63,157 nt of DNA from Candidatus Eiseniibacteriota bacterium (GCA_030609365.1 JAUWCJ010000003.1:1-63157); one strand, 5' to 3'. Positions 1,982 to 17,067 are shown, numbered from the stretch's first letter. Notes: generated by a model not told the origin, from the letters alone. A program made the numbers and translations.

Positions 1982-3604
1982 TTAGTGTGCGGAGCGGATG
2001 TAGACCATCTTGGTCGTGAGTGGTGGAACCTCACCAGTGACAATCACGAAGTAGATGCCTGACGGCACTCGCGCGCCACGTCGGGGCCACGAGACTGACA
2101 CGTGCCGCGCTGCGGCGTCACAGCTCCAGAGCACTCTACCACTTGTGTCGATGACATCGATCCTACGGTGAGGATTCCGATGGGGGAAGTCGGCGACGAC
2201 AGCAGCGGGGCCGATCGAAGGAGATGGGAAGACGGTGAGACTTCCCTGCTTCATGTCCGATGGTAACGCGTCGCCGCCGACCGATGTCGCATGTGCGATG
2301 CCGCACAGTTCATCCGCATGAGTAGCGAGTATCGCCAGAGTCGTGGAGTCGCTATCGTAGATGCTGTACCACCCCTGATGCTCATGAGGCGGGTCACCAA
2401 CCCACTGCTCTCCGGGACTCCAGTAGCCACCGAAGGGAGCGGATGGCCTCCCCTCGCCCGCCCAAGCCCAGACGTTGTCACCGCATGCCGGCCCACCGCC
2501 TTGCGCTGATGCCTCAATGAGGCCGTAGAGTGAAGATAGTAGTGAGTCCCGCCAGACCACGGACACGGATGGATCGTATGAACCCCCGTCCCTGGCGAGT
2601 CCGAACTCCTCGAGGACAAGCGGCTTGCCGAGGCCCCCGGCCTCACCAAGGTGCGCCGAGAGGTAGTCCTCTGCTGTTGCCAAGGCCAACGGGAACGTGC
2701 CCTCTGGGTTCGCCGGGTCGAACCATTCCCAGTTCTGCGGCCAGATGTGGATGGTCGTGTAGTCGATGTCCGGGCCGTCGTGATTGACAGTGAAGTCGAG
2801 CCCGTTCCAGGACGGCCACGGGGTATCGCCTTCGCAGCCGGTCGTCACCAGATGGTTGGGGTCGAGCGACTTGATGTAGGCCGCAGTGTCGTCCAGCCAC
2901 GTGTTGAACGCTGCCGCGTTGTTGTGGAACCCGCGCGGCTCGTTCGCCAGCTCCCACGCCATGATGGTCGGTTCGTCACTGTACAGCCGGCCGGTGTGGG
3001 AGTTGTATCGTCCCAGAAGAAACGCGATGTGGTCCCGGAGATCCTGCATCGCGTCCGCGTTGGAGTAGAAGTCCGACGCGTAGTCCTGGTAGACGTTCCA
3101 GTCACCGCCGGGCTCCGGCGGTGGATAGGGTATCGGACCACCGCCGTTCCAGTTGACGTATTGCGCCATTCCGCCGGACCACTGCCAGAAGTTCGTAAGG
3201 CAGGCGACCGCCCTCATCCCGCGTTGGTCCATTTCTCCGATCAGGTAGTCGAGGCCGTCGAGCACGTCGGCGTCGTACGTCCCGGGGCTTGTCTGCAGCG
3301 ATGGCACGATGCGCCAGGGCTCTGAGTCTGGTCCCTCGCTCCCCACCATGATACGGAGGTTCGTCACGCCGAGCGATCGCAACGCATCGAGCTCGCGGCA
3401 CAGCCGTTCACGATCTCCGCCGGCACCGCTCGAAGCCAGGTTCATGCCGTACCAGTAGTTGACGCCGGCGTAGAGGTAGCGCTGCCCGTTGAGTTCGAAC
3501 TCGAGTCCGCTGACCTCGTTGACCTCGACGAAACCAGTGTTCCGAGGTTGACACTCGTACCACGGGACAGCGAGGACCAGTATCAGGAGGATGACTAACC
3601 GCAT
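1982..3604 (-). CDS. Secreted glycoside hydrolase family 5 (probable endo-beta-1,4-mannanase) with a T9SS type-A-like C-terminal sorting domain.
   Basis: ORF 1982..3799 trimmed to the ATG at 3604 (AAGGAG upstream; MRLVILLILVLAVPW signal peptide). GH5 clan-A motifs: WELANEPRG (acid/base Glu) and PLVLEEFG (nucleophile Glu). FVEVN..FELNGQRYLYAGVNYWY resembles a GH5 mannanase N-terminus. The tail ..VPSGIYFVIVTGEVPPLTTKMVYIRSAH is sorting-domain-like. Confidence 0.75.
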   Translation of the reverse strand: MRLVILLILVLAVPWYECQPRNTGFVEVNEVSGLEFELNGQRYLYAGVNYWYGMNLASSGAGGDRERLCRELDALRSLGVTNLRIMVGSEGPDSEPWRIVPSLQTSPGTYDADVLDGLDYLIGEMDQRGMRAVACLTNFWQWSGGMAQYVNWNGGGPIPYPPPEPGGDWNVYQDYASDFYSNADAMQDLRDHIAFLLGRYNSHTGRLYSDEPTIMAWELANEPRGFHNNAAAFNTWLDDTAAYIKSLDPNHLVTTGCEGDTPWPSWNGLDFTVNHDGPDIDYTTIHIWPQNWEWFDPANPEGTFPLALATAEDYLSAHLGEAGGLGKPLVLEEFGLARDGGSYDPSVSVVWRDSLLSSLYGLIEASAQGGGPACGDNVWAWAGEGRPSAPFGGYWSPGEQWVGDPPHEHQGWYSIYDSDSTTLAILATHADELCGIAHATSVGGDALPSDMKQGSLTVFPSPSIGPAAVVADFPHRNPHRRIDVIDTSGRVLWSCDAAARHVSVSWPRRGARVPSGIYFVIVTGEVPPLTTKMVYIRSAH

Positions 3605-3741
3605 CCGTCCAGGCTCCTTTCCGCGACCCGCGCTCCCCGACCATAGCACCCGCCCCATCCACGACAGGTCGCGCTTCTCGTTCCCCGGCGCCGCCCCCGA
3701 GCGAGCCACGGCTGCCCCCACCGACTGATCAGCGATTGACG

Positions 3742-3840
3742 CGCAGTCGACATGTGAGGTGTACTTCCAGATTCTACAGCCATTCAGTCGCTGCCTCAAT
3801 GACGCATCTTGACAATAATGGCGACACGACGCAGTGTGGC
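3742..3840 (-). repeat. Copy C (core only) of the conserved promoter module.
   Basis: It shares CATGTGAGGTGT, the -10/-35 geometry, TCTTGACAAT exactly 7 nt beyond the -35, and a flanking CGCAGT motif with copies A and B. Confidence 0.5.
3771..3799 (-). promoter_or_regulatory. Sigma-70-type promoter for the GH5 gene.
   Basis: Minus strand reads TTGAGG (3799..3794), a 17-nt spacer, then TAGAAT (3776..3771). About 165 nt of leader lie before the ATG at 3604. Confidence 0.5.
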
Positions 3841-4057: not shown

Positions 4058-4374
4058 CTGACGCCATGCTCAGCAATGAAGTCGTTTCTGTCTTGCCAGG
4101 ACAGCTATTCTGTGGTAGGGTGGCGATACTAATAGGGAGTGCGTCTGAGAATCAGTCTGCGCGCGTTTCCGCATGAGGTTGCTCATGCGTCTGTTGTGCT
4201 ATCGCGCGAGCATCCAACTACCGGCGTATCTGCAATTGAGCCGTACCCGAGATCCATCGGTCCGAGGGGAGGTGATGCGACAGAGCACCACTGATGTCGC
4301 GTCCGCGTAACCAATCGCCATGCCAGCGGTCGATCGGCTGGTTCGGTGCCGCCTGTTGGAAACTGGAGGTCGTC

Positions 4375-5244
4375 ATGAGACGATTCCTATCGGTTTGTGT
4401 AATCCTTGTGCTCATGTTCCCGCTCACGTCTGCTGCTTCGATCCTTTGCACAGCGGACAGCGTTTCAGAGATGATGCTGTACGGGCTCTTGGTCACCCAT
4501 CCAGAGTTGCCTCCGAGTGGTGCTGCCTTCGCATACCTATACACTGCCGATGTCGACTGCGAGAGGCCGACCATGGTGTACTGCGTGGATGCGACAGTCC
4601 CCCTTTGTGTGGGTTGGGAGTATGAACAGGGTCCCGATCTTGAGGTGGGCGAACTGCTCTGGATTGTGAACAGCTACTTCCCCGACGTGCAGGAGATGCC
4701 CAGCGAGCTCGCCACCTATGACGAGCGGGCAGCGGCTGTGGCCATGGCCCTGTGGCACTTCAGCGACGGTCTTGACATTTCCGAACCCGGAAGCGGACTA
4801 CCACTGAATGTATTCGACGCGGCGCGGGCCATCATTGCTCTTGCCGAGGGCCAGACGGCAACCGTACCCCAGACCCCGACGTCTATTGGGTTCGCCACGG
4901 ATTGGAATCCCCCCGTGACGGTCACCGCGACGCTGTACGACCAGAACGGCCTGCCGATACCCAACGTGTTCATCAGCTGGGAAGTCACCAGCGGGAGCAG
5001 CGGAAGTAGCCCAACAAACGGGGACGGCCAGATCGTGATGTCCTGGTTCTGGGTCGAGGAAGACATCCTCACGCTCGACGTCGACTACGCCATCCCGGTC
5101 GGGCTGACGTGGAGTCTACCGGGTTGTCAGGACCTGATTCAGGCTGTGCCGGCCGATGGCCATCTCACGGCGACCTGGGACGAGGAGCCGGCTTCAAGCG
5201 CGGCTCCCACCACTTGGGGAAAGGTCAAGAATCTGTACCGGTGA
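4375..5244 (+). CDS. Secreted adhesin-like protein: thioester (TQXA/TED)-like domain followed by a bacterial Ig-like domain.
   Basis: ORF 4294..5244 trimmed to the ATG at 4375 (GGAGG upstream; MRRFLSVCVILVLMFPLTSAAS signal peptide). PTMVYCVDATVPL and ELLWIVNSYFP...AAAVAMALWHFSDGLD resemble the Cys motif and the TQxA(I/V)W block of thioester domains. VTVTATLYDQNGLPIPNVFISWEVTSG is Big_1-like. The protein ends in TTWGKVKNLYR. Confidence 0.5.
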   Translation: MRRFLSVCVILVLMFPLTSAASILCTADSVSEMMLYGLLVTHPELPPSGAAFAYLYTADVDCERPTMVYCVDATVPLCVGWEYEQGPDLEVGELLWIVNSYFPDVQEMPSELATYDERAAAVAMALWHFSDGLDISEPGSGLPLNVFDAARAIIALAEGQTATVPQTPTSIGFATDWNPPVTVTATLYDQNGLPIPNVFISWEVTSGSSGSSPTNGDGQIVMSWFWVEEDILTLDVDYAIPVGLTWSLPGCQDLIQAVPADGHLTATWDEEPASSAAPTTWGKVKNLYR

Positions 5245-5631: not shown

Positions 5632-6210
5632 CTACCGCCCCTCGACCTCCACCATCGGCTCCGTCAGCACCTCGACCCCGAAGGCATCGACGAGGCTATC
5701 GACCTTGAGGAACAGGGTCTGATGGCCGCGTCTCCCGTTGCCCTCGAGGAGTACCTCGCCGTTCTCCACGACCTTCTCGCTGAGCATGCGACCGTCACTG
5801 TCCTGCAGGCGGCATCTCGGAGGCGCGCTGTCCGGGTCCGGCGTCCCTGACTCCGGCAGCGTGAATCGCACCGCCACACTCCAATTCGACCTGTTGGAGA
5901 CGACGCTGACCTCCGCGACATGTGCTTCCGGGGCTACTCCCACTGCCGGCGCCTCGTCGCCGCCTGTCCTGTATTCGGACTCGAAGGGACTGATGAGCTT
6001 GACCATAGTACGCTCTGGGATGGAAACGCCTATGCCGGTTGAAACCGGGACCTCTTCGGCCGACACGTCCATCGGACAGACAAGGAGCACGGCAGCGAAG
6101 GCAATCGAGGACATAGTAAGCCGGAGAGCGAACCGCGAAAGCGCCTGCTCCCCAGGCTGTGGCCGCGACCCCCTGTGCATGCGTAGCGCAACCACTCTCA
6201 TAAGAGCCAC
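5632..6210 (-). CDS. Small secreted beta-rich protein, last gene of the secretin operon (P5).
   Basis: GTG at 6210 with GGAGAAAGGG upstream; an alternative ATG is at 6114. The hydrophobic segment SSIAFAAVLLVCPMDVSA|EE follows an Arg-rich n-region. The motif AEVSVVSNRSNWSVAVRF resembles motifs in P1 and P2. I recognised no known family. Confidence 0.55.
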   Translation of the reverse strand: MALMRVVALRMHRGSRPQPGEQALSRFALRLTMSSIAFAAVLLVCPMDVSAEEVPVSTGIGVSIPERTMVKLISPFESEYRTGGDEAPAVGVAPEAHVAEVSVVSNRSNWSVAVRFTLPESGTPDPDSAPPRCRLQDSDGRMLSEKVVENGEVLLEGNGRRGHQTLFLKVDSLVDAFGVEVLTEPMVEVEGR

Positions 6211-6265
6211 CCCTTTCTCCCGGCCAGTCTTTCCCTCGGTCTCCCCGTCGCCGCGCTCCCGCGCG

Positions 6266-7909
6266 CTACTGGAGGAGCCCCGCCAGCTCGGACTGGTGAA
6301 TCACAATGTGTGGTGTAACAAGGATAACGAGCTCCTTCTGCTGCTTCTCAATGATTGTATGCCCGAACAGCGCTCCCAAGTAGGGGATGCTGCCCAGAAT
6401 CGGTATTCGGCTCTCTTTGGTCCTCTCTACTTCCGACAGAAGGCCCCCTATCACCACAGCCTCACCGTTGCCTACGCACGCTCGCGTCTCAACCTCCCGG
6501 ACGTTTGTCACCGGGAGATCGTTGGTGCCCGATGAGCGGACATCGCTCACTTCCACGAATACGTCCACTGTAATCTCGGACGATTCCCCTACGTACGGGG
6601 TGATCCGGAGCGTTATACCCGTGGCGATCGTCTGTAGCGTGTAGTAGGCGTAGCTCACCGAGCCACTGAGTAGCGAGTAGTACGCCTCGGTTCCCACGCG
6701 AATGCGCGCCTCGTGTCCGTCCAGCGTCGCGACCCTTGGGTTGGCCAGCACCTTGGCTACGCCACCCGCCTCAAGGGCTCTTACGGCAAGGGTGACGTCG
6801 GTTACGGAACCGAGACCCACGCCCGATTTGACTAGCTTCGCAATGAACGAGGAATCCGCAAGCGCCGGCACCAGCTTGGCCAACCGGAACGTGCCACCAT
6901 CTCCGTCGCTGCCGAGGATCTCCCAGTCTATCCCCCACTCTCTTAACAGCTCATTGTTCAGTTCGACAACAAGGGCCTCGATCACAACCTGGCGAGCGGG
7001 CAGGTCGATGGCCGCGAGGTGTTCCAAGAACGCGCTCAGAATGCCAGGTGGTCCGGTGACCGTCAGGGCGTTCCCGCCGTCAGGGTCCTTGCGCACATAC
7101 TGGCCGTACGATTCCGGGAGCAGGTCAAGCACGCTGCCTGCAAGGAGGTGCTTGGGCCGTACTTCGACCGTTTCCACTGTGAGCATCGACCCGGGGTCGC
7201 GTTCGTCGTCCACTGCGCCGATGAGGTAGTAGCCGTCCATCCACCGATATCCCAGGCCCAGAGGCACTGTCAATCGGTCCAAGCACTCCTCGAGCGGGAG
7301 ATCGTGGAACTCCGCAGTGACCAGCCCGCGGACACTCCTCGTGACCAATATGGGGACCCCTGTCTGGGCTGAAACGTCCAGCACCACCTGCTGGATGCCG
7401 GTCTCGTAGAACAGGTTCGTGACCCGCGCCCCCACGGGGGGACCGCCCCCGCTCATCTCGGCCAGCCAGTCCGGCGCTAAGCTAGCCGGTGCGTCGACCG
7501 CGACGCGCGGGGATTTCGGCGCATACGTGTCGGCGATAGCTCCAAGTTCCGCGCGCTCCGGAAGAACTGCCCACTCCCTCGGGTAGTACTTCCGGAGCAG
7601 GTGGAAGCTCAGGGCCGCCTTGTCCGTGTTCCCCGCGCCCAGCTCGGCGCGGCCGAGCAGGTAGAGAACGTCAGGCATGACCCTGTAGGAGGTGTTGCTC
7701 CCTAGAATCCCGCGCAGCAGCCTAGAAGCCTCCGCATAGTCACCGTCGCGGAATACCGACGCTGCCGTCGCCAGATTTTCCTCGACGGTCTCGCGCTCCC
7801 CCAGAACACCGTCAGCCGTCTGGAACGACTGCTGAGAGGCGCAGCCGCTCAGAATGAGCACAGCGACCAGCGCAGAGGTGAGGCTAAGCCATGCACGAAC
7901 GTTACTCAT
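6266..7909 (-). CDS. Outer-membrane secretin lipoprotein with a fused N-terminal TPR (pilotin/BamD-YbgF-like) and STN-like domains (P4).
   Basis: Lipobox LILSGC. TPR-like: FRDGDYAEASRLL...LYLLGRAELGAGNTDKAALSFHLLRKYYPRE. STN-like: GIQQVVLDVSAQTGVPILV..LEECLDRLTVPLGLGYRWMDGYYLIG. Secretin core: ANPRVATLDGHEARIRVG, AVVIGGLL, RIPILGSIPYLGALFG, ELVILVTPHIV. Its ATG overlaps the P3 stop (ATGA at 7906..7909). Confidence 0.85.
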   Translation of the reverse strand: MSNVRAWLSLTSALVAVLILSGCASQQSFQTADGVLGERETVEENLATAASVFRDGDYAEASRLLRGILGSNTSYRVMPDVLYLLGRAELGAGNTDKAALSFHLLRKYYPREWAVLPERAELGAIADTYAPKSPRVAVDAPASLAPDWLAEMSGGGPPVGARVTNLFYETGIQQVVLDVSAQTGVPILVTRSVRGLVTAEFHDLPLEECLDRLTVPLGLGYRWMDGYYLIGAVDDERDPGSMLTVETVEVRPKHLLAGSVLDLLPESYGQYVRKDPDGGNALTVTGPPGILSAFLEHLAAIDLPARQVVIEALVVELNNELLREWGIDWEILGSDGDGGTFRLAKLVPALADSSFIAKLVKSGVGLGSVTDVTLAVRALEAGGVAKVLANPRVATLDGHEARIRVGTEAYYSLLSGSVSYAYYTLQTIATGITLRITPYVGESSEITVDVFVEVSDVRSSGTNDLPVTNVREVETRACVGNGEAVVIGGLLSEVERTKESRIPILGSIPYLGALFGHTIIEKQQKELVILVTPHIVIHQSELAGLLQ

Positions 7910-9519
7910 CGAAGTCCCTCCGGGACGGCGTCCGTGCTCGTGAATGAGGCGTCAGCAGTCAGAAGCTCGCCCCCGGCGCTCTTCTGCTCGAGCTCGACCT
8001 CGACGACGAATACGCCGCTGTCAACCAGTGGCAGAGGCATCCGGAACTTCCTTCGACTGCCCGGCATGATGCGTTCCCAGTTTCTGCTCCCGATGGCCAA
8101 CTCGGCGAGTACATCACCAGGGTCGGCACGGAGACGCACGTGCCCCTTGATCTCCCCGATTCCCTTTCCGGTGTTGGCCACCGTGAGAATCGCGCTCCCG
8201 GGGTTGGATTGCGGGTGAACTCGCACCAGTTCCAGATCCTCTATCTTGAGCGAGGCGCCACCGCGGTTCGTCGCTTCGACGATGATGATGGCACCCGCGT
8301 CGTAGACCGTTTTGAAATCGCCGTCCTCCCGGCTCGTGAGGCCCACGAATCTCACTGCCTTCGCAGCCGGCTCGCTCAGAGCCGAGTTCTCATCAAGCCT
8401 GACTCTCGCTCTGACTGCAGCACTGGACTTAGGCCCGATCACGACAGTGTCTGGAGTCACCTCGACGGTGAGCCCTGCCACTGGAATCTCGGAAGCTGCG
8501 TAGGTCCAGCGCCCGTCTGACTCCAGGCGCGCATCCTCCACGCTCACCTTCAGGGTCAGGGTCTCCTCGCCCAGGTTGCTCAGCCGAACGGCAACGCTTC
8601 GCTCACCGCCCGGCGGGACAGTGATCTCCTGGGGCTGCTGCTCAATCCAGAGATCTGTGGCAACTTCCATCTTCGAATCAGTGGAGGAAGCCACCCTCGC
8701 AGAGCTTCCGATCGCAAGCATGAATTCGCTTCGTGACTCGCGTCTCTGCCCCAGATCGAGCCGCGACACCACCCTCCACGTACCAGGCGGGACTCCCTCG
8801 GCCGCAACCTGCAACTGGATCATCTCTTCGGGATAAATCTCGTACGCGTGCCCGTCCCTTCGGTAGGGCAGCTCCACGCGCCGGGGGAATCCCCCTGTTT
8901 CCGGGTAGAAGAGGACGTCACCGCGCACCTCGCTCACCCATACCCCCGTGTTCCGGATATCAACGAGGAGCTGATTGCCCGCAGACTGGTACTCGATCCT
9001 CTCGACACCGACCTCAAGAGGCCCACTCGAGATGACACGAACGAGGACTTCGACAGCAGCTCCGGGGATGATCGCCGCCGCCACCTGAGCGTCCGGCCGC
9101 GGCGCGCGCATGTTGACCGTAAGGTACGCCGAGTAGGCTCCGTAGGCGTTGCTGGGAACCCTGATGGAAACAGGAACGTCGTGCGCCTCCTTCCCACTGA
9201 TCGTCACCTGTGACTCGACCTCGATCCAGTCGCTCGCCGAGCGAGCGCCTCCGCCTCTGTCGACCTGCTCCTTCTGGCCATTCAGCAGCTGCGTGAGGTC
9301 CCGCACCTCTATGTCGAAAGTGGAGCGCTGGCCCGACACAACGCCAACAATACGGAAGCTGCCGTTCCACATCTCGCCCGGGGTCGCGTCAACCACGAGC
9401 TTCAGGGGTCCTATGCCGATTCCCCCCTTGACGTCCTCGGCCTCCTGGCTCTGAACGCCCGGGACAAGAATACAGGTCAAGACGACGCCAACGCACACAC
9501 CGAGGCGAAGCGATGTCAC
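7906..9519 (-). CDS. Secreted four-module Ig-like/beta-sandwich protein (P3), possibly a periplasmic chaperone or scaffold.
   Basis: GTG at 9519 with AAGGAGAG upstream; signal peptide ..CILVPGVQS|QE. There are four ~120-aa modules arranged as two A-B pairs. A-type modules: ..SASDWIEVESQVTISGKEAHDVPVSIRVPSNAYGAYSAYLTV and LWIEQQPQEITVPPGGERSVAVRLSNLGEETLTLKV. B-type modules: LEVGVERIEY..NQLLVDIRNTGVW..PGTWRVVSRLDLG and LKIEDLELVRV..AILTVANTGKG..GVFVVEVELE. It is translationally coupled to the secretin. Confidence 0.65.
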   Translation of the reverse strand: MTSLRLGVCVGVVLTCILVPGVQSQEAEDVKGGIGIGPLKLVVDATPGEMWNGSFRIVGVVSGQRSTFDIEVRDLTQLLNGQKEQVDRGGGARSASDWIEVESQVTISGKEAHDVPVSIRVPSNAYGAYSAYLTVNMRAPRPDAQVAAAIIPGAAVEVLVRVISSGPLEVGVERIEYQSAGNQLLVDIRNTGVWVSEVRGDVLFYPETGGFPRRVELPYRRDGHAYEIYPEEMIQLQVAAEGVPPGTWRVVSRLDLGQRRESRSEFMLAIGSSARVASSTDSKMEVATDLWIEQQPQEITVPPGGERSVAVRLSNLGEETLTLKVSVEDARLESDGRWTYAASEIPVAGLTVEVTPDTVVIGPKSSAAVRARVRLDENSALSEPAAKAVRFVGLTSREDGDFKTVYDAGAIIIVEATNRGGASLKIEDLELVRVHPQSNPGSAILTVANTGKGIGEIKGHVRLRADPGDVLAELAIGSRNWERIMPGSRRKFRMPLPLVDSGVFVVEVELEQKSAGGELLTADASFTSTDAVPEGLR

Positions 9520-9557
9520 AGGCTCTCTCCTTGCTTTCGAACACAGATGACCATGAC

Positions 9558-9587
9558 GGTGCCGGGGGACATGAATCCCCCGGCACC
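9558..9587 (-). terminator. Perfect 12-bp GC-rich hairpin between P2 and P3 (attenuator or partial terminator, or a stability element).
   Basis: GGTGCCGGGGGA-catgaa-TCCCCCGGCACC lies 15 nt after the P2 stop. On the minus strand it is followed by GTCATGGTCATCTGTGTT. Confidence 0.45.
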
Positions 9588-9601
9588 TCTGCCTACTCAG
9601 G

Positions 9602-10360
9602 CTACGGGCTGCTGAACGTCACGTCCAAGTGCGTGGCGTAGTCGCCGCCCTGATCCAGCATGCCGAAACGCTGGATGCGGGCCAGCCACTGTATCGTACC
9701 CTCGACGCCCGGGACAAGAGGTCCCCACGTATAAGTGTTGGACGCGGGGGCGCAAGGGAAGGCCCACTCGTTCGGGAAAAAGTACGTCGGGTTGCTGTCG
9801 CCGATCACGAAGCCTCCGGTGTCGTACAGGTAGCTACCCCACAGTAGTGGGACGCCACTCTCGGGGACCTGGCCGTCGGCGAACCACGAGCCCCCGACCA
9901 TGAACGGACACGCGCACATGGTGAACCACGTGGGGATATACAGGTCCGTGCTGGTATCAGGATCGTAGTAGTGGAGATCGCCGTTCGTGTGGACAGCCAT
10001 CGACAGCGGGTTGTTGGACCTGACGAAGATCCGCGCGCCGTCGTTGGTCATGTAGTACATCCCGTCCGTGCCGCAGTAGTACTCCGAGCCGGCCCACGCG
10101 TCCGAGGGAGTCTTGCCGTCGGGGTCAGGGCAGTGCAGGTACGCTGTCCCCATGAGCTCATTGCAGTAGTAATCCTCGGCCGTGTCACCGTCGTAGTCGA
10201 ACACCATATCCGTATCCTGCCACTGGATCTGGATGTAGCAACCGAGACCGAGGGTGATCGTGAGATCACCATCCGCAGCGCCATCCCACTGCGTGGGGTA
10301 GGCTCCGGCAGACACGGTCAGTGCTGCGACGGCCAGTACTACCAAGATTAGCCTAAACAT
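9602..10360 (-). CDS. Secreted Cys/Trp/Tyr/Asp-rich beta protein (P2), a putative exported structural subunit.
   Basis: ORF trimmed to the ATG at 10360 (AGGAAGGAAG upstream; MFRLILVVLAVAALTVSAGA|YP signal peptide). The mature part has seven Cys. Motifs: DLTITLGLGCYIQIQW, ARIFVRSNNPLSMAVHTNGDL, and the C-terminal strand GGDYATHLDVTFSSP. I recognised no known family. Confidence 0.6.
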   Translation of the reverse strand: MFRLILVVLAVAALTVSAGAYPTQWDGAADGDLTITLGLGCYIQIQWQDTDMVFDYDGDTAEDYYCNELMGTAYLHCPDPDGKTPSDAWAGSEYYCGTDGMYYMTNDGARIFVRSNNPLSMAVHTNGDLHYYDPDTSTDLYIPTWFTMCACPFMVGGSWFADGQVPESGVPLLWGSYLYDTGGFVIGDSNPTYFFPNEWAFPCAPASNTYTWGPLVPGVEGTIQWLARIQRFGMLDQGGDYATHLDVTFSSP

Positions 10361-10380
10361 GGTAGGCTTCCTTCCTATAT

Positions 10381-10547
10381 TAGGTTGCTGCATGCAACCT
10401 ACCGGTCCGCCTCTGCATCAATACAGGTAGAGGGACTGACGTCTCAAGTGCTGGTCCCTCGCCGGGGCTGGCGGATCACCCCGGACTCCCTGCCCGGCCC
10501 GCGTTCCTCGGGGAGCCGGAACGCGTCTCTGCGGCCTGAGGCCGCAG
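10381..10547 (-). promoter_or_regulatory. Cluster of three GC-rich stem-loops in the 300-nt P1-P2 intergenic region.
   Basis: 10381..10401 is TAGGTTGC-tgcat-GCAACCTA, directly 5' of the P2 Shine-Dalgarno and followed by AUAUA on the mRNA. 10501..10524 is GCGTTCC-N10-GGAACGC. 10529..10547 is CTGCGGCC-tga-GGCCGCAG. Confidence 0.45.
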
Positions 10548-10664
10548 GTCACCAGACCACCTCCTTTCTGCTAACGCATCTCGCTTCCGCGGAGGCTCTG
10601 CTTGCCGACAGTCTCCGCCTCGCGCTCGCGAGACGATTCCGTTTCAACGTGCGACGCCGACCGA

Positions 10665-11699
10665 TTACCGTGGCGTCCCGGACAAGTGCATCTCCGATAC
10701 GTAGACACCGGAGGTGTCCGTCTCGTAAACCTCGAGTGCCAATCGGAAGCTCGCAATGAACACGCCGCCCTCGTCGTATCCGACCAAGAGGCAGTTGTCG
10801 TCACCGATGGAAATCCATTCGCCCGGCTCGCCGCCTTCGTCCAGCATCGACCACTCCACGCGTGCCAGCGGAATGACCAAGCCACTGCCGGACACGAAGT
10901 CTGTTCCATCAAGGACCAACTCCCACTGCGTCTCGTTGGTAGCTACGAGCGCGTCAAGATCTGGCTCAACGAAGTAACGACCGGGCATCGGAGTGCTGAT
11001 CGTAAACACCGACTCGCCCGTCAGGACCAACGTTAGAGGCTGAGTGATCAGCTGCACGGGGATCACCGCCCGCCCAAAGAACACGCGCCCGATGGCGCTG
11101 TCCCCCACAGGACCTGTCTGGTCAGCCGTCACTTCGCTGCCGGGCGCCCTCCGGAAATCGCCTCCGCCAGGCTGCTCGATCTCGTCCTCGACGATTATCA
11201 GACCGCCTGTTGACACAAGATGGAGAAGACCCCCATACGGCCCCGGAGCTTCCGTCCATCCGGGCTGCACCTGGATCTCGAGCCAGAGGTCTGGGGCCGG
11301 CACAGGCCCGTGCCCTCGTGCAATGATCGGATTCCCCGCTATGGGAACGAACTCTTCACCCGTCGCCGCTGACCTGACCAGCACCTGGCCGTCTTCCATC
11401 GGTCCTTCTGGCCCCGTGGTCCACTCGAACTGGGCTCTCACCTCCCAGTTCGGCAGCGGCGATGCTACGCCGAAGGCAAGCGTCCCTTGCATGCCGGGAA
11501 GCACTGGCACTCCATTCCCGTCGGGCGGCAGAGCGACTTCCTCGTCCAGCACCATGAAGTCGTCATTGATGGTTATCCAGACACCGCCCGCCGAGCGGAG
11601 AGCGACATCGTCCAGGGATGTAGGATGCTCCTCCACGTTTCGCTTTGCGCTCGACGCAGAGCACGCAATCAGCACGAGTGCGAGCGTAAGAACGCGCAT
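10665..11699 (-). CDS. Secreted lipoprotein with two beta-rich halves (P1), first gene of the secretin operon.
   Basis: ORF 10665..11807 trimmed to the ATG at 11699 (AGAGAGGA upstream; MRVLTLALVLIAC lipobox). Motifs: GTLAFGVASPLPNWEVRAQFEW, ATNETQWELVLDGTDF, and the C-terminal strand SGVYVSEMHLSGTPR. I recognised no known family. Confidence 0.6.
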   Translation of the reverse strand: MRVLTLALVLIACSASSAKRNVEEHPTSLDDVALRSAGGVWITINDDFMVLDEEVALPPDGNGVPVLPGMQGTLAFGVASPLPNWEVRAQFEWTTGPEGPMEDGQVLVRSAATGEEFVPIAGNPIIARGHGPVPAPDLWLEIQVQPGWTEAPGPYGGLLHLVSTGGLIIVEDEIEQPGGGDFRRAPGSEVTADQTGPVGDSAIGRVFFGRAVIPVQLITQPLTLVLTGESVFTISTPMPGRYFVEPDLDALVATNETQWELVLDGTDFVSGSGLVIPLARVEWSMLDEGGEPGEWISIGDDNCLLVGYDEGGVFIASFRLALEVYETDTSGVYVSEMHLSGTPR

Positions 11700-11971
11700 G
11701 CACAATCCTCTCTTCGCACGTGGGCCGCTTCGAAGGGCGTCGACCTCTCCCGTCTCGTTCACAACAGCGTCGCGGTTCATCGCCATCACCCTCTCTCCCA
11801 GTGTCACCTGCTCTGCGGGCGGTGGCGTTCTACTGGAGTCGAACGGCGCCGCGTGTCACCCCTGTCCTTGTCCGTCAGCTGCGAGGCTTGACTTTCCGGC
11901 TCGCGTGGCTATCGTGTAGAAGATAGAGCCGGGCCCTGATCCTCATGGATCGGGCGAGTCTCGGTTCCACC

Positions 11972-12254
11972 CGGGCGGCTGGATGGCAGCGAATCCATCA
12001 CCAGCCGCCCGATTTCTATTCTCCGCAGATGTCGTTGATCAGTCGTGCGCTTCGTGCTACACCTCACGAGGACACTCGCCCCGCAACGAATGAGAACAAG
12101 TCATGTGAGGTATGTGCGACTAGCATACCGACGTGCCGCCACCATGTCAACAGGTTATCTTGACAATGGTAGCGAAAACTCGCAGTCATGCAGGTAGTCA
12201 AAGGTATATACTTCGGTGTCCGGGGAATCGGTCCTACTCACCGTAACTTGCCAT
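11972..12254 (-). repeat. Copy B of the conserved ~280-nt promoter/leader module.
   Basis: See copy A. The shared hairpin arms CGGGCGGCTGG/CCAGCCGCCCG form a perfect 11-bp stem here. Confidence 0.6.
12122..12150 (-). promoter_or_regulatory. Sigma-70-type promoter of the secretin operon.
   Basis: Minus strand reads TTGACA (12150..12145), a 17-nt spacer, then TATGCT (12127..12122). About 410 nt of leader lie before the ATG at 11699. Confidence 0.55.
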
Positions 12255-12375
12255 TCTCTGTAGGATAGCCATTACAGCAATGCCGCCCGACCTCGGCCGG
12301 GCTGCCCTGCGCTCCAAGCACGTGTCAGACAAGTGCTTGCGCGACGTCGCTCGAATGCCTGTGACTCTTGCCTCG

Positions 12376-13614
12376 CTAATCCTCCCTCGGCGCCATGCTC
12401 ATGCAGCCGTTCACAGGGCACACAGAGACGCAGAAGCCGCAACCGATGCACTTCTCATCATCCACTTCCGGCACCCTCGCCAGCTCGCCCGCGTCCTCTC
12501 CCCTGAACTCCAGCGCCTGGTGACCCCCGTCCCTACACGCGATCACACAGGCTCCGCACCCGATGCAGAGATCCTCGTCGATCGCGCTCACGACCTTGTA
12601 CTCCCGGGAGAGCGCCTCATGCGACACGAGCCCAACCAGCCCCTTCCCGACGAGTTCCATTGGCGAGGTCAGACCCTTGTCTTCCAGATAGAGCGCGAGC
12701 CCTTCGTTGAGTTCCTCAACGATGTCGTAGCCGTATCGCATCACGGTCGTACAGACCTGCACGATCCCCGCACCCGCGAGCAGGAACTCCACAGCGTCCT
12801 TCCACGTGACCACACCACCCACACCGGCGACGGGGATCTGTACGTCCTTCGCGACATCCGCCACGAACCGTAGCGCGATAGGCTTGATGGCCGGACCCGA
12901 GTAGCCGCCCGCGGTAGATTGTTCGTTGACCGAAGGAAGGGGCGCGAACGTGTCTAGGTCGAACCCGATGAGCCCCTTCACCGTGTTGATGCACGTGATG
13001 CCCGCCGCGCCCGCCTCTTTCACCCTGGCCGCGATAGGACGCATGTCCGCAACGTTCGGCGTCAGCTTGATGAGGACCGGGATGTCGACGGCGTCGACGA
13101 CCCACTTCGCCCGCTCGAACGTCAGGTCGGCATCCTGCCCCACGGCCGAGCCCATGCCTCGCTCGGGCATGCCGTGCGGGCATGAGAAGCTGCACTCGAT
13201 CATGTCGGCGCCTGCGTCCTGCACGCGGCGCGCAATCTCCTGCCACTCGGCCTCGGTGGCGGCCATCATGCTGACTATCACGACGTTGTCAGGATAGTCC
13301 CGCTTGAGGTCGCCCACTTCCGCCAGGGCCTCGTTGATATCGCGGTCCGAGATGAGGTCAATGTTCTCAAGCCCGATGAGATTCTTGTCCTCGTATGACA
13401 GTCCGGCCATCATCGGGGAGACCAGGTTGACCTCGACGTGCTCGAGGCCGAGGGTCTTGACCACCGCGCCGCCCCAGCCTGCCTCGAAGCCGCGAGCTAT
13501 CATCTCACCCTTGTCAGTCGGCGGGGCCGCGGCCAGCACGAACGGATTCGGGAAGCGCACGCCGCAGAATTTGACAGACAGATCCACCTTCTTCTTGAGA
13601 TCCACTCGGACCAT
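12376..13614 (-). CDS. preA: NAD-dependent dihydropyrimidine dehydrogenase subunit PreA (DHODH-like TIM barrel plus two 4Fe-4S clusters).
   Basis: 412 aa. FPNPFVLAAAPPT..., a GGYSGPAIKPIAL FMN-barrel pattern, and C-terminal CIGCGACVIACRDGG and CIGCGFCVSVCP. Its ATG overlaps the preT stop (ATGA at 13614). Confidence 0.85.
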   Translation of the reverse strand: MVRVDLKKKVDLSVKFCGVRFPNPFVLAAAPPTDKGEMIARGFEAGWGGAVVKTLGLEHVEVNLVSPMMAGLSYEDKNLIGLENIDLISDRDINEALAEVGDLKRDYPDNVVIVSMMAATEAEWQEIARRVQDAGADMIECSFSCPHGMPERGMGSAVGQDADLTFERAKWVVDAVDIPVLIKLTPNVADMRPIAARVKEAGAAGITCINTVKGLIGFDLDTFAPLPSVNEQSTAGGYSGPAIKPIALRFVADVAKDVQIPVAGVGGVVTWKDAVEFLLAGAGIVQVCTTVMRYGYDIVEELNEGLALYLEDKGLTSPMELVGKGLVGLVSHEALSREYKVVSAIDEDLCIGCGACVIACRDGGHQALEFRGEDAGELARVPEVDDEKCIGCGFCVSVCPVNGCMSMAPRED

Positions 13615-14957
13615 CAGCGCCCACCTCCTTCCGTGGAGGCCGCGTCCCCGGTGGCCGCCTCATTCAGATAGGCCGCGACGCCGGTGGCCGCCCGCTTCCC
13701 CTCCGCGAAGGCCTGCACGGCCGTCGCACCACCACTGACCACGTCGCCCGCGGCGAACACGCCCGGCATCGATGTCACCATCGTCTCCTGATCAACGCGG
13801 ATTAGCCCGCGCTCGTCGGCGTCTACACCCTCGTAGCAATCCAACACTCCCTGCCCGATGGCCTCGATGACGGCCGTCGCGGCCAGCCGAAACTCGGTCC
13901 CGGGGATCTCCTCAGCGTTGGAGGGCACGAGAAGACCGGGCGTCTTCCATCTGATACCTACACCCTCGTAGCCGGAGACCTTTCCGTCAGTACCGACGAT
14001 CTTCACGGGCTTCGTCTGAGTGTGGAACTCGATGCCCTCGCTCTGTGCAATCTCGACCTCCGAACGGAAGGCGGGCAGCTCGTCATAGGATTCGAGGCTG
14101 CACAGGTCGACTCTCTCGGCGCCCAGATGCTGTGCCGTCATTGCCGCGTCGATGGCCACGTTGCCTCCACCGATGACAACAACGCGCTTGCCGAGGTCGG
14201 GCTGCTCTCCTCGCGCCACCGCGGCAAGGAGGTCCGCCGCCACGAACACGCCCTCGAGATCCTCGCCGGGCAGCCCTATGGTGTACGGCCGGTAGAGCCC
14301 CACACCGATCACGACCGCGTCGAACCCGCTCTTGAGAAGCGCGGCCACGTCCTTCTCGTCTCGCCCGAGGTGGACGTCGGCGCCCAACCGCCCGATGTAG
14401 TCGAGCTCGCTCTCGACGAACCTGCGGTCGAGCCGGAACGGTGGGATGCCCTGCGTCAGAACGCCGCCCATCGAATCGGCGCGCTCGAAGATCTCCACGC
14501 CGAAGCCCAGCTTCCTGAGTTCCGCAGCCGCGGCCAGCCCGGCCGGACCCGCGCCCAGGACAGCGACCTTCTCTCCCCTTCCTTCGGCCCGCACAGGCAA
14601 AGGCGCGAGCGTTCCCAGCTCGATGTCGCCCGCGAACCTCTGTAGACCCGCGATGTCGATGGGCGTGTCCAGGTTGCCGCGCGTGCAGTTCTCCATGCAA
14701 AGGATCTCCTGCGGGCAGACGCGCCCGCAGATCCCGACGAGCAGATTCGCCTCACGGATCAGGCGCGCCGCACCCCGGAAGTTCCCGAATCGTATCTTCC
14801 TTACGAACCTGCGGACGTCGACCCCGGCCGGGCAGCCGTCCAGACACGGAGCCTCGTCGCACATGAGGCAGCGCGATGCCTCCAGCACCGCCTCGTGTGG
14901 CGAGTAGGTCCGTCCCGACTCGCTCAATTCCTCGACCTTCTGCGCGTAACCCGTCAT
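13614..14957 (-). CDS. preT: Dihydropyrimidine dehydrogenase subunit PreT / GltD-like NAD(P)H-dependent oxidoreductase.
   Basis: ORF trimmed to MTGYAQKVEEL (the start at 14957 is computed from ORF coordinates and lies 4 nt after the upstream stop). Fe-S motifs: CLMCDEAPC and CGRVCPQEILCMENC. Two Rossmann motifs: VAVLGAGPAGLAAA and VVVIGGGNVAIDAA. Confidence 0.8.
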   Translation of the reverse strand: MTGYAQKVEELSESGRTYSPHEAVLEASRCLMCDEAPCLDGCPAGVDVRRFVRKIRFGNFRGAARLIREANLLVGICGRVCPQEILCMENCTRGNLDTPIDIAGLQRFAGDIELGTLAPLPVRAEGRGEKVAVLGAGPAGLAAAAELRKLGFGVEIFERADSMGGVLTQGIPPFRLDRRFVESELDYIGRLGADVHLGRDEKDVAALLKSGFDAVVIGVGLYRPYTIGLPGEDLEGVFVAADLLAAVARGEQPDLGKRVVVIGGGNVAIDAAMTAQHLGAERVDLCSLESYDELPAFRSEVEIAQSEGIEFHTQTKPVKIVGTDGKVSGYEGVGIRWKTPGLLVPSNAEEIPGTEFRLAATAVIEAIGQGVLDCYEGVDADERGLIRVDQETMVTSMPGVFAAGDVVSGGATAVQAFAEGKRAATGVAAYLNEAATGDAASTEGGGR

Positions 14958-14961
14958 GTCG

Positions 14962-17067
14962 TCAGCCCCTTGCATCCAGCCCCAGGCCAAATTGCGTCTG
15001 TCCTCGTTCCGGGCCACCGCTGAGCCTGACCGACAGACCCAGCCCAGCGGGCAACCCCGTCTTGAGGCGAATATACCACCTCGCTCCCGGCACATTCAAG
15101 GAGGCGAGCCCGAACTCGCCCGGGAGACGGGGCTCGTACTGGACGAACGAGGCCACGGCTCCCTGTGAGATCATCGATGTCAGGCCCGCCGTGTAGGAGC
15201 TTGTGCCCGCGATGCTGCCGTCTATCCTCAGGGCGACTGCCAGAGATGACCCCTCCTCCCATCCCTCAGAGAAAGATGTGACTCGCCACGCCGAGACCGT
15301 CACCGGCACGGACCCCTCCGTCCGCAGTGACACTCGCGTTCGGCGCACAATGCCCTCGCGGGTCACCGGCGGATCCCCCTCGCTGTCACTGCGCGCACGG
15401 ACCTTCGATTCCACCGCGATGCGCCAGTTCCGCTTCGTTCTGAGCTCGCCGCCGAGGGTCACTGCTATCGAGTTGTTGGGCAGCTCGGAGTGGTAGGAAC
15501 GCCACGGTCTCTTCGTCACGCGGCTTGCGGCCCAGATCTTCCAGTCGGCGCCGGAGCGGTACTCGGCGCCCACCCACCCGACGGCGCCGTTCGACCCACC
15601 GGAGAAGCCTGGGACACCTCCACCCAGCGGTGACCAGTAATCTCGGGACAGGTACGCCGCGCCGGCACTCACGCGGCAGCCTCCGTGCCGCAACCGGCCG
15701 GCGGCCAAGGCAGCGATGCCGCCCGCCGAGGTTGTCGCCACCTCGCACCCGGCGCTGAACCCGCCAATCGAGGTCCGAACATCGAAGCCGCCCGCCGTCA
15801 GCTCGTCGCCGAAGAACCTGAAGCGCTGCCTCACCGGGTCACCGGTCGCCAGCTCCGGTGAGAAGCCGAAGCGAAGCAGCGAGGCCGAGAGCTCCAGCCC
15901 GGGACTTCGTTCGATGCTGACGCGGACGCCCATGAGGGACTCATCCAGCGAGAGCGCGCCTTCCCTCTCTCCCTCGGTGCGATGGTACCCGGTCGTCCTT
16001 ATAGAGGTGGCCAGACCATCCTCCCCGATGGCCGCGTCCAACCCAGTTCTGGCGAGGATCGCTCTGACGCGGACCTCCCCTCGCGATGCGATAACGAACG
16101 CACCCCGCCTGCTCGTGGCCTCTCCGGCCCCGTCGTAACGCCTGACGGAATCGCGCCGGCGCGGGTAAGCGGCCTCCGACGGGAACCCTCCGCTCCGCAG
16201 TAGCAGTCCCTGGCCCCAGCTCCCGGTGAAGTCGCCGAGTCCGATGGAGAGCGCCGGCCCATCCCCGGGTGCGTCCTCATCTCCCCGCCACACGAGGGAG
16301 ACCGCCGAGTGATCAGCGAGGTTCTCCTCGCCAATGTCTTTCTCGCACGCCACCGAGAGATCGAGCAGGTCCGCGTACGACACTCGCAGCCGCACGTAGG
16401 ACGCGAAGCCGGTGGCGGCGTGACGTCCACCCCAGGCGTCCTCCCAGCGCTCCTGCGTAGCCGCGCGAAGACGCAGCTCCCAGGTGACAGGGAACCGTGA
16501 GTCGCCGCCCGGCGCGGGACCGGCCTCGCCGACGGCGGTAGCACCCTCCAACCGCGCCGTCGCGACCGCGGATTCAGGGATCGCTCCCGGCCGCCGGGAC
16601 GCGCCTCCGGTCGTCAGCCGCGCGACAAGATATGGCCGCACCGCCACGAAGGTCTCACGGCTGAGACACCCCCGCGTCACCAGTTCGTCCAGGGACTCTG
16701 CCGGGCCAAGAGCATCGCGCCGCACTACGATGCGCACGGCCGATGCAGGATCGAGAAACGGCACACGCAGAAGTTCCGTGAGCGCGGCGGTGTTGACGTC
16801 CGTGGGGTTCTCTCTGAAGGCCGCGGCCTCGCGCAGGAGCTCGTCCAACCCATCGACGGCGGCGCTCTCGTCATCAAGCCCCGCGAGCAGCTCCCGGAGA
16901 AAGGGACCGTCCAGATCCGAAAGAGCTTCGCTGACGGTCGAGTCGTCCGCCGCGAGATCGTCGAACCCCGAGGTAACGTCGTCAGCTCGGGAGTGTGTGG
17001 GGAGAGCTGCCACGAGGACTGCGAACAGGAGAACCGCGATGTCACAACTGCATAGTAAGCGACACAA
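14962..17067 (-). CDS. Outer-membrane beta-barrel protein with an N-terminal ComEA-like helix-hairpin-helix domain.
   Basis: TTG start at 17067 (GGGAGTGAG upstream) and signal peptide MCRLLCSCDIAVLLFAVLVAALPTHSRA|DD. DVNTAALTELLRVPFLDPASAVRIVVRRDALGPAESLDELVTRGCLSRETFVAVRPYLV matches the ComEA HhH pattern with a degenerate GIG. The remaining ~550 aa are alternating Gly/Arg/aromatic beta-strand-like sequence. Confidence 0.6.
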   Translation of the reverse strand: MCRLLCSCDIAVLLFAVLVAALPTHSRADDVTSGFDDLAADDSTVSEALSDLDGPFLRELLAGLDDESAAVDGLDELLREAAAFRENPTDVNTAALTELLRVPFLDPASAVRIVVRRDALGPAESLDELVTRGCLSRETFVAVRPYLVARLTTGGASRRPGAIPESAVATARLEGATAVGEAGPAPGGDSRFPVTWELRLRAATQERWEDAWGGRHAATGFASYVRLRVSYADLLDLSVACEKDIGEENLADHSAVSLVWRGDEDAPGDGPALSIGLGDFTGSWGQGLLLRSGGFPSEAAYPRRRDSVRRYDGAGEATSRRGAFVIASRGEVRVRAILARTGLDAAIGEDGLATSIRTTGYHRTEGEREGALSLDESLMGVRVSIERSPGLELSASLLRFGFSPELATGDPVRQRFRFFGDELTAGGFDVRTSIGGFSAGCEVATTSAGGIAALAAGRLRHGGCRVSAGAAYLSRDYWSPLGGGVPGFSGGSNGAVGWVGAEYRSGADWKIWAASRVTKRPWRSYHSELPNNSIAVTLGGELRTKRNWRIAVESKVRARSDSEGDPPVTREGIVRRTRVSLRTEGSVPVTVSAWRVTSFSEGWEEGSSLAVALRIDGSIAGTSSYTAGLTSMISQGAVASFVQYEPRLPGEFGLASLNVPGARWYIRLKTGLPAGLGLSVRLSGGPERGQTQFGLGLDARG

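Follow-up and report, generated by a model that had tools for sequence, protein, structure and literature searches.

Can the WxLIP-based surface complexes of Gram-positive bacteria have a counterpart in a bacterium with an outer membrane, and can such a counterpart be tied to a secretin? The question is raised by a 63,157-nucleotide (nt) stretch of DNA from Candidatus Eiseniibacteriota bacterium (GCA_030609365.1, JAUWCJ010000003.1:1-63157), here called the window, whose minus strand carries five co-directional genes in the order P1-P2-P3-secretin-P5, a single operon. WxL/Csc clusters combine a small WxL protein, a large WxL protein, a WxLIP (DUF916 plus DUF3324 plus a transmembrane helix) and often a small LPXTG protein. 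In Gram-positive bacteria WxLIP, anchored in the membrane, binds proteins with WxL domains and keeps them at the cell wall, and the bound state is represented by PDB entry 9i25. Work on the WxLIP/WxL loci of monoderms has dealt with their part in adhesion and virulence. The publications found to mention DUF916 all concern monoderm bacteria, mostly lactic acid bacteria, enterococci and Listeria with one case from Actinomycetota, and among the publications searched none was found that links DUF916 with a secretin. The one publication in which DUF916 is a frequent neighbour of Ang-2 metal-binding proteins concerns Actinomycetota and was judged irrelevant here. An earlier reading of the window from its sequence (the original prediction) had proposed a possible diderm analogue of WxL/Csc loci. 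In this study, we show that P3 consists of two tandem WxLIP ectodomains, each with DUF916/PGBD followed by DUF3324/HBD; the relationship is real homology and more than a shared fold. The features that carry this finding are the following.

7906-9519, minus strand: P3, 537 amino acids (aa); signal peptide, two tandem WxLIP-like units, conserved C-terminal tail ...PEGLR
9031-9420, minus strand: P3 module A1 (residues 34-163), a DUF916/PGBD-like beta-sandwich
8710-9018, minus strand: P3 module B1 (residues 168-270), a DUF3324/HBD-like beta-sandwich
8278-8673, minus strand: P3 module A2 (residues 283-414), DUF916/PGBD-like
7936-8250, minus strand: P3 module B2 (residues 424-528), DUF3324/HBD-like
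6266-7909, minus strand: secretin, 547 aa; lipoprotein signal LSGC, N-terminal tetratricopeptide repeat (TPR) region, then an N3-plus-secretin core

The original prediction had quoted a series of peptides and read P3 as two tandem pairs of beta-sandwich modules, A followed by B. All the peptides are present on the minus strand where they had been placed, the A-type strings at P3 residues 94-135 and 289-317 and the B-type strings at residues 168-256 and 424-511. An AlphaFold2 (AF2) model of P3 built with 20 homologues (mean pLDDT 83, pTM 0.80) contains four separate beta-sandwiches, with limits at residues 34-163, 168-270, 283-414 and 424-528. Comparison of the modules by hhalign within a 90-member family alignment gave E 1e-30 for A1 versus A2, E 2.1e-25 for B1 versus B2 and E 2.5e-45 for the complete pairs, AB1 versus AB2. 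With the close homologues only (n = 20), B1 and B2 matched at E 4.8e-5 and A1 versus A2 was not significant. P3 is a tandem duplication of an A+B unit, far beyond chance with the wider family, and the predicted architecture is borne out. An exhaustive hidden Markov model search placed 1738 representative clusters in the P3 family at E <= 1e-3, most of them of about 510-600 aa; a word-indexed profile search with the diverse alignment A3 returned only the close family. Members are annotated as hypothetical only or, in one case, as 'COG1470 family protein'. No transmembrane helix is found in P3, and its C-terminus (...SFTSTDAVPEGLR) is free of any hydrophobic stretch. The terminal residues (7906-7945; ...F-T-S-T-x-x-x-P-E-G-L-R) are almost invariant in the clade of the window, yet the model shows them as disordered (pLDDT < 50). 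A short peptide for docking, for instance to the secretin, is one role that they could have.

Do the A+B pairs correspond to the DUF916 and DUF3324 domains of Gram-positive WxLIPs, as had been suggested? Taken by itself, the window P3 matches PF06030 (WxLIP_PGBD) at E 1e-4 over residues 299-375, with 22.8 bits against a cut-off of 27.3 bits, and its sub-threshold Pfam matches are shared with fn3_5 and FixG_C. Within the family, 61 of 90 members match PF06030 (best E 1.7e-11), the match falling on A1 or on A2 depending on the member, and five of 90 match PF11797 (WxLIP_HBD). Searched against PDB, the family profile matched EfmWxLIP1 (9i1y_A) at E 2.8e-15 over both domains (residues 24-272) and 9i25_C at E 4.3e-15; 9i1y is the solved EfmWxLIP1 of Enterococcus faecium and 9i25 its complex with a long WxL protein. 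In hhalign against a reference alignment of seven Gram-positive WxLIPs from plasmid loci, the two halves of P3 gave E 7.7e-16 and 1.4e-15, the A modules aligning on PGBD and the B modules on HBD. Taken singly, A1 and A2 matched the PGBD part at E 3.4e-11 and 2.8e-11, and B1 and B2 the HBD part at E 1.5e-6 and 2.3e-6. Foldseek searches with the P3 model returned 9i1y_A (E 3.6e-9, TMt 0.46) as the best two-domain bacterial match, amid many generic proteins with multiple immunoglobulin (Ig)-like domains. The assignment to DUF916 plus DUF3324 is confirmed by the profile tests against both the Gram-positive WxLIPs and the solved EfmWxLIP1. Two differences set P3 apart: it carries two PGBD-HBD pairs in 537 aa, whereas a WxLIP has one pair in about 340-365 aa, and it is without the C-terminal membrane helix, whereas all seven Gram-positive WxLIPs end in a hydrophobic helix and a basic tail.

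It may be objected that the likeness to WxLIP merely reflects a generic Ig-like fold, that P3 is an ordinary multi-Ig protein of the COG1470/CARDB type, located at the surface or in the periplasm, and that the adjacent secretin is incidental. The sub-threshold Pfam matches shared with fn3_5 and FixG_C, the many unrelated multi-Ig proteins among the top Foldseek matches and the 'COG1470' name of one member are in line with this view. It is nevertheless highly improbable and largely refuted, as both domains are matched in order at E of about 1e-15, with independent WxLIP sets and a solved structure, and as the linkage to a secretin recurs at 15-20% P3 identity with the genes overlapping or close.

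This linkage begins with the P3 stop codon, which overlaps the secretin start by 4 nt (ATGA). The secretin itself is recognised by Pfam (PF00263, E 7e-42) together with TPR matches. It lies below all NCBIfam subtype cut-offs (GspD 181 bits versus 351, PilQ 158 versus 284), and its best PDB matches, PilQ and GspD, are found at about E 1e-27 with equal resemblance. Close relatives of P3 come from uncultured metagenome-assembled genomes labelled Candidatus Eisenbacteria and Krumholzibacteriota, and these keep the order P1-P2-P3-secretin-P5 despite differing flanks. More widely, of nine separate lineages examined, seven have a P3-like gene adjoining a secretin gene, with P3 identity as low as 15-20%. 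Between these two genes there is an overlap or a gap of at most 25 nt in the clade of the window and in the related loci L004, L007, L008, L009, L024 and L025. Gene orders in six related loci are listed here.

L006: secretin (upstream), 230-aa protein, P3-like, 214-aa protein
L007: P2-like, P3-like, secretin, P1-like
L008: half-size WxLIP-like, 237-aa protein, P3-like, secretin
L009: P3-like, secretin
L024: P3-like, secretin
L025: P3-like, secretin (secretin confirmed by jackhmmer)

For the distant loci an origin in the Bacteroidota/FCB (Fibrobacteres-Chlorobi-Bacteroidetes) group is suggested, because neighbouring genes carry tail domains of the type IX secretion system (T9SS) type. The set of small secreted beta proteins, a P3-like protein and a secretin recurs across very divergent lineages. 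The proposal that a WxLIP-type module is coupled to a secretin stands on the ATGA overlap and on the recurrence of the linkage in distant relatives. Half-size, anchor-less WxLIP-like proteins with a single A+B unit were also seen next to P3-like genes, at 377-1213 in L008 (278 aa) and at 5174-5938 in L024 (254 aa).

Could the secretin instead be the outer-membrane part of a machine of the type II secretion system (T2SS) or type IV pilus (T4P) kind encoded elsewhere, with P3 as a periplasmic accessory and P1, P2, P5 and perhaps a neighbouring GH5 enzyme as cargo? Characterised secretins all require an inner-membrane partner, the secretin core resembles GspD and PilQ equally, the GH5 enzyme is conserved beside the cassette, and L007 has a gene for a T2SSE-type ATPase on the other strand, some 6 kb away from its P3 gene. 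We regard this explanation as unlikely, however. L007 stands alone in this respect: no conserved ATPase, platform or pilin gene was found near the cassettes in the other related loci, and the window open reading frames (ORFs) that were scanned included no gene for a T2SS/T4P ATPase, platform or pilin. Moreover, the secretin remains below every NCBIfam subtype cut-off, and its tight, conserved coupling to P3, along with the WxLIP homology of the latter, suggests a dedicated partnership.

What, then, are the small proteins encoded with P3 and the secretin? The remaining features of the operon are as follows.

10665-11699, minus strand: P1, 344 aa; alternative start GTG at 11807; Sec signal peptide, possible lipobox LIAC
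9602-10360, minus strand: P2, 252 aa; Sec signal peptide with cleavage after AGA
9558-9587, minus strand: GC-rich RNA hairpin, 13-bp stem and 4-nt loop, between the P2 stop and the P3 ribosome-binding site
5632-6210, minus strand: P5, 192-aa ORF; likely start M33 at 6114, giving 160 aa with a signal peptide
12122-12150, minus strand: sigma-70-like promoter match TTGACA-17-TATGCT 5' of P1; a weak consensus match, and the host's promoter type may differ

N-terminal export signals are present on all five products, the signal peptides of P1, P2 and P5 being of the ordinary Sec type and not prepilin leaders; membrane anchors and known C-terminal sorting domains are absent from all five. The P2 start was set by its homologues, which begin at M12 of the ORF (9602-10393). 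P1, P2 and P5 gave no match in Pfam or NCBIfam and no significant PDB sequence match. A common motif had been predicted for the three proteins, with examples whose order differs from that of the labels P1, P2 and P5 and which lie in the P2 ORF (VRSNNPLSMAV, 9602-10393), in the P5 ORF (VVSNRSNWSVAV, 5632-6210) and in P1 read from its alternative start (ATNETQWELVL, 10665-11807). For P1 and P5 this reflects homology. P1 is made up of two tandem copies of a beta-rich domain of about 130 residues, and P5 of one copy; jackhmmer started from P1 recovers P5, and hhalign gave E 5.5e-7 for the N-half versus the C-half of P1 and E 2.4e-5 for P5 versus the P1 C-half. With broader profiles, the P1 N-half matched the P1-C/P5 domain at E 6.6e-11. 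Judged by these sequence comparisons, the two proteins have in common a new beta domain of about 130 residues. The claim did not extend to P2, whose best match to P1/P5 (E 0.06) covers only the last 18 residues or so, where the pattern D-x-x-G-x-Y-x-x-x-h-x-h is common with P1; P2 as a P1/P5 relative was rejected on these grounds. P2 is a separate beta-rich family, rich in Cys, Trp and Tyr, with the conserved end ...GDYxTxLDVTF(T/S)SP, and is a candidate for the abundant main subunit.

P1 orthologues are found in all loci of the window clade and in L007, L026 and L034, and the position of P5 3' of the secretin gene is conserved in the clade. The metagenome scan with P2 yielded nine loci only. 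The AF2 model of P2 reached a mean pLDDT of 70, with values of 74-91 over residues 101-230 and 241-252 and a drop to 57 at residues 231-240. Foldseek found no match to this model at E <= 1e-3; the best, non-significant matches were subunits of donor-strand filaments, namely CfaB (E 3.8e-3), CsuA/B, FimA and archaeal bundling pili, with TM values of 0.23-0.36. In L006, paralogous secreted proteins of about 220 aa (9106-9798 and 11697-12341; mutual E 6.9e-11) flank the P3-like gene. Both end in D-[DE]-G-Y-Y-x-L-x-[IL]-...-P-x-L, a terminal pattern similar to those of P2 and P1/P5, to which they are unrelated by sequence.

The region between P2 and P3 adds a further element. Folding of the 82-nt P2-P3 spacer gave -38.2 kcal/mol (z -4.5). 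The hairpin was not listed in a repeat search of the window, probably because of its G-run, and was found by folding. A perfect stem of 12-17 bp, different in sequence, occurs at the same place after P2 in nine of nine loci, including the distant L007, L026 and L034. Of eight Gram-positive loci, five have a comparable hairpin between their small WxL and WxLIP genes. The P2-P3 hairpin is a probable intra-operon attenuator or mRNA stabiliser. A hairpin after the first structural gene is typical of operons that make far more of a main subunit than of assembly factors, so its position after P2 would imply high P2 expression. The gene order shows a similar correspondence. Gram-positive plasmid loci usually encode a small LPXTG protein, a small WxL protein, the WxLIP and a large WxL protein in this order, and in both the diderm and the Gram-positive loci a gene for a secreted protein of about 180-275 aa stands directly 5' of the WxLIP or WxLIP-like gene. 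In a second cassette subtype with the order P1-P2-P3-P2'-P3' (L026 4936-11318, L034 394-7001, L035 4735-11117), P2 and P3 are duplicated together as a pair, which suggests a specific P2-P3 partnership. The L026 cassette is followed by a gene for a secreted, Cys-rich protein of 994 aa, in which CGPxAxANCxWW is part of two repeats.

These observations bear on another explanation, in which P3 is a cell-wall tether. Its DUF916 units would attach to peptidoglycan and would fix the secretin and the periplasmic small proteins in the envelope or set their spacing there, comparable to AMIN of PilQ or to GspA/B. DUF916 has been named a peptidoglycan-binding domain from docking predictions (PMC10599100), and P3 is a soluble protein encoded by a gene that overlaps the secretin start. 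Yet the peptidoglycan binding of DUF916 is itself a prediction, and a tether leaves unexplained why three secreted beta proteins are conserved, why P2 and P3 are duplicated as a pair and why a hairpin implying high P2 expression follows P2. We consider a tether quite improbable.

How might the encoded proteins act together? We favour, though with slightly less than even confidence, the reading that the cassette is a secretin-dependent display or assembly module and a diderm relative of the WxL/Csc loci, for which we infer the following mechanism. The literature searches brought up no publication on such a module. P3 would be periplasmic, and each of its WxLIP units would bind one small beta protein, by analogy with the WxLIP-WxL complex in 9i25 and probably by beta-strand insertion. 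P3 would dock under the secretin and deliver or hold the small proteins there, and these would cross the outer membrane to form a surface complex or a short fibre. The main, abundant component of such a structure would be P2, with P5 and a possibly lipid-anchored P1 in minor or adaptor roles. Because no ATPase is conserved nearby, binding or folding would have to supply the energy for export, as they do in chaperone-usher or curli systems, with the secretin in the place of the usher. A bolder and rather doubtful extension is a previously unrecognised, widespread 'chaperone-secretin' pathway. There, a soluble double WxLIP would take up beta-sandwich subunits in the periplasm through strand complementation, feed them to a dedicated secretin without an ATPase and build a surface fibre or complex, and this ancestral machinery would have its single-membrane relative in the WxL/WxLIP system of Gram-positive bacteria.

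Several points weigh against the display or assembly module. First, we infer the export of the small proteins, their surface location and the formation of a fibre, and the contacts of P3 with the small proteins and the secretin are postulated by analogy. Second, to our knowledge every characterised secretin works with an inner-membrane machine, and such a machine could be encoded elsewhere in the genome. Third, no secretin was found within the 1.4-7 kb examined on either side of the L026, L034 and L035 cassettes, so the pair of WxLIP-like protein and P2 can exist without an adjacent secretin. Fourth, confidence in the P2 model is only moderate, and none of its pilin-like matches in Foldseek is significant. 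Finally, a likeness of P1, P2 and P5 to WxL domains, SCPU or DUF4402 had been expected and was not found: none of the three gave a Pfam match to PF13731 (WxL), SCPU or DUF4402. PF13731 was not matched by these proteins or their orthologues at E <= 10, and the solved WxL chain 9i25_A was not among the top 50 Foldseek PDB matches of the P2 model (pLDDT 70). Alignments of small WxL and long WxL proteins were built from annotated Gram-positive plasmid loci and matched each other in hhalign at E 1.3e-15, which served as the positive control. Against these alignments, P1-N, the P1-C/P5 domain and P2 gave E 0.047-0.75, like the negative controls, with E >= 0.2 for the small WxL proteins and a best E of 0.047 for the long ones (P1/P5 domain). 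The alignment of P1-C/P5 with the long WxL proteins is co-linear through both motif positions, and P1-C has W-x-L ... G-x-Y-x-x-x-h-x-L-x-x-x-P in the same order as the long WxL proteins, in both cases without statistical support. The proposed analogy with WxL/Csc loci thus holds for the WxLIP component and the operon layout, the partner proteins being unproven.

Upstream of the operon are PreT/PreA-like oxidoreductase genes, and downstream are a convergent gene for a thioester-domain protein and a gene for a GH5 enzyme. The PreA/PreT-like dihydropyrimidine dehydrogenase genes (12376-15095, minus strand) lie directly 5' of the cassette in the window, L001 and L003 and not in L004, a pattern that resembles synteny at the level of the clade more than membership in the system. 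The gene at 4294-5244 (plus strand) encodes a secreted protein that combines a thioester domain (TED, E 4.3e-6) with Big_1 and has the C-terminus ...TTWGKVKNLYR*; the 63 kb contain no second copy of its terminal motif W-[GS]-x-[IV]-K-x-x-Y-R. At the equivalent place in relatives (L001 14015-14626; L003, L012 and L014), a gene termed 'P5b' encodes a protein ending in ...TWSQIKAMYR*. Such a terminus may be a cassette-linked C-terminal sorting or cargo tag. The GH5 gene (mannosidase/cellulase-like) adjoins the cassette in the window (1982-3799, minus strand), in L001 (14717-16327), in L003 (14697-16307) and in L007 (3119-4306), and in the distant L007 it neighbours a P5b-like gene. This conserved neighbour hints at a role in the binding or degradation of polysaccharide.

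These results extend the WxLIP scaffold to bacteria bearing an outer membrane, where it is found in more than 1000 clusters at 50% identity and occurs duplicated, without an anchor and genetically tied to a secretin. For secretins, this is a conserved partner of a new kind and perhaps a way of working without ATP. The Gram-positive WxL surface complexes are linked to a diderm counterpart, which bears on the evolution of the system, and P1, P2 and P5 become concrete candidates for the diderm equivalents of WxL proteins. More generally, the cassette points to an undescribed way of placing protein complexes on the cell surface.

How does the cassette compare with known systems? With secretin machines (T2SS GspD, T4P PilQ, Tad RcpA, SctC of the type III secretion system, phage pIV) it has in common a typical core with N3, and its N-terminus, with lipoprotein signal and TPR, recalls the functions of pilotin or PilW/PilF. 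Unlike these machines, it falls below the subtype cut-offs, has no neighbouring ATPase, platform or pilin genes and has a conserved WxLIP-like partner that is undescribed for any secretin system in the literature searched. It is not a T2SS/T4P locus, because ATPase and pilins are missing.

With chaperone-usher pili, including the archaic Csu/SCPU type, the cassette shares a protein of paired Ig-like domains, predicted in its case to be periplasmic, several small secreted beta subunits, a single outer-membrane channel, the lack of an ATPase and a candidate main-subunit gene followed by a hairpin. Matches of the P3 profile to fimbrial chaperones were weak and non-significant (EcpB E 0.19; EcpB, pili chaperone and CfaA in the range E 0.19-1.4), and PapD_N was matched by one of 90 family members. 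In contrast to chaperone-usher pili, the channel is a secretin, the chaperone-like protein is of the WxLIP type with four domains, and there is no SCPU, DUF4402 or fimbrial Pfam match. An usher (PF00577) was found in none of the related loci, the secretin being the sole outer-membrane channel of the operon, and because there is no usher the cassette is not a chaperone-usher system.

As defined by Hassan et al. (PMC10599100), a WxL gene cluster needs at least two WxL-domain (PF13731) proteins; for csc clusters a role in carbohydrate utilisation has been proposed (PMC1534035). The cassette falls outside the WxL clusters in the sense of Hassan et al., because it has no WxL domains and no membrane anchor and its unit is duplicated. 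It differs from WxL/Csc loci in carrying the unit twice in one polypeptide without a C-terminal membrane helix, in lacking LPXTG proteins, sortases and any WxL domain that could be detected, and in the presence of a secretin, whose start codon overlaps the P3 stop, in a host with an outer membrane. It resembles them in the PGBD-then-HBD unit (E of about 1e-15), in the Sec-exported products, in several partner proteins per operon, in the gene for a small secreted beta protein, followed by a hairpin, directly 5' of the WxLIP or WxLIP-like gene, and in the carbohydrate-active enzymes nearby. The cassette could represent a new assembly pathway; the most fitting description is that of a new variant, coupled to a secretin, on the theme of WxLIP-based surface complexes.

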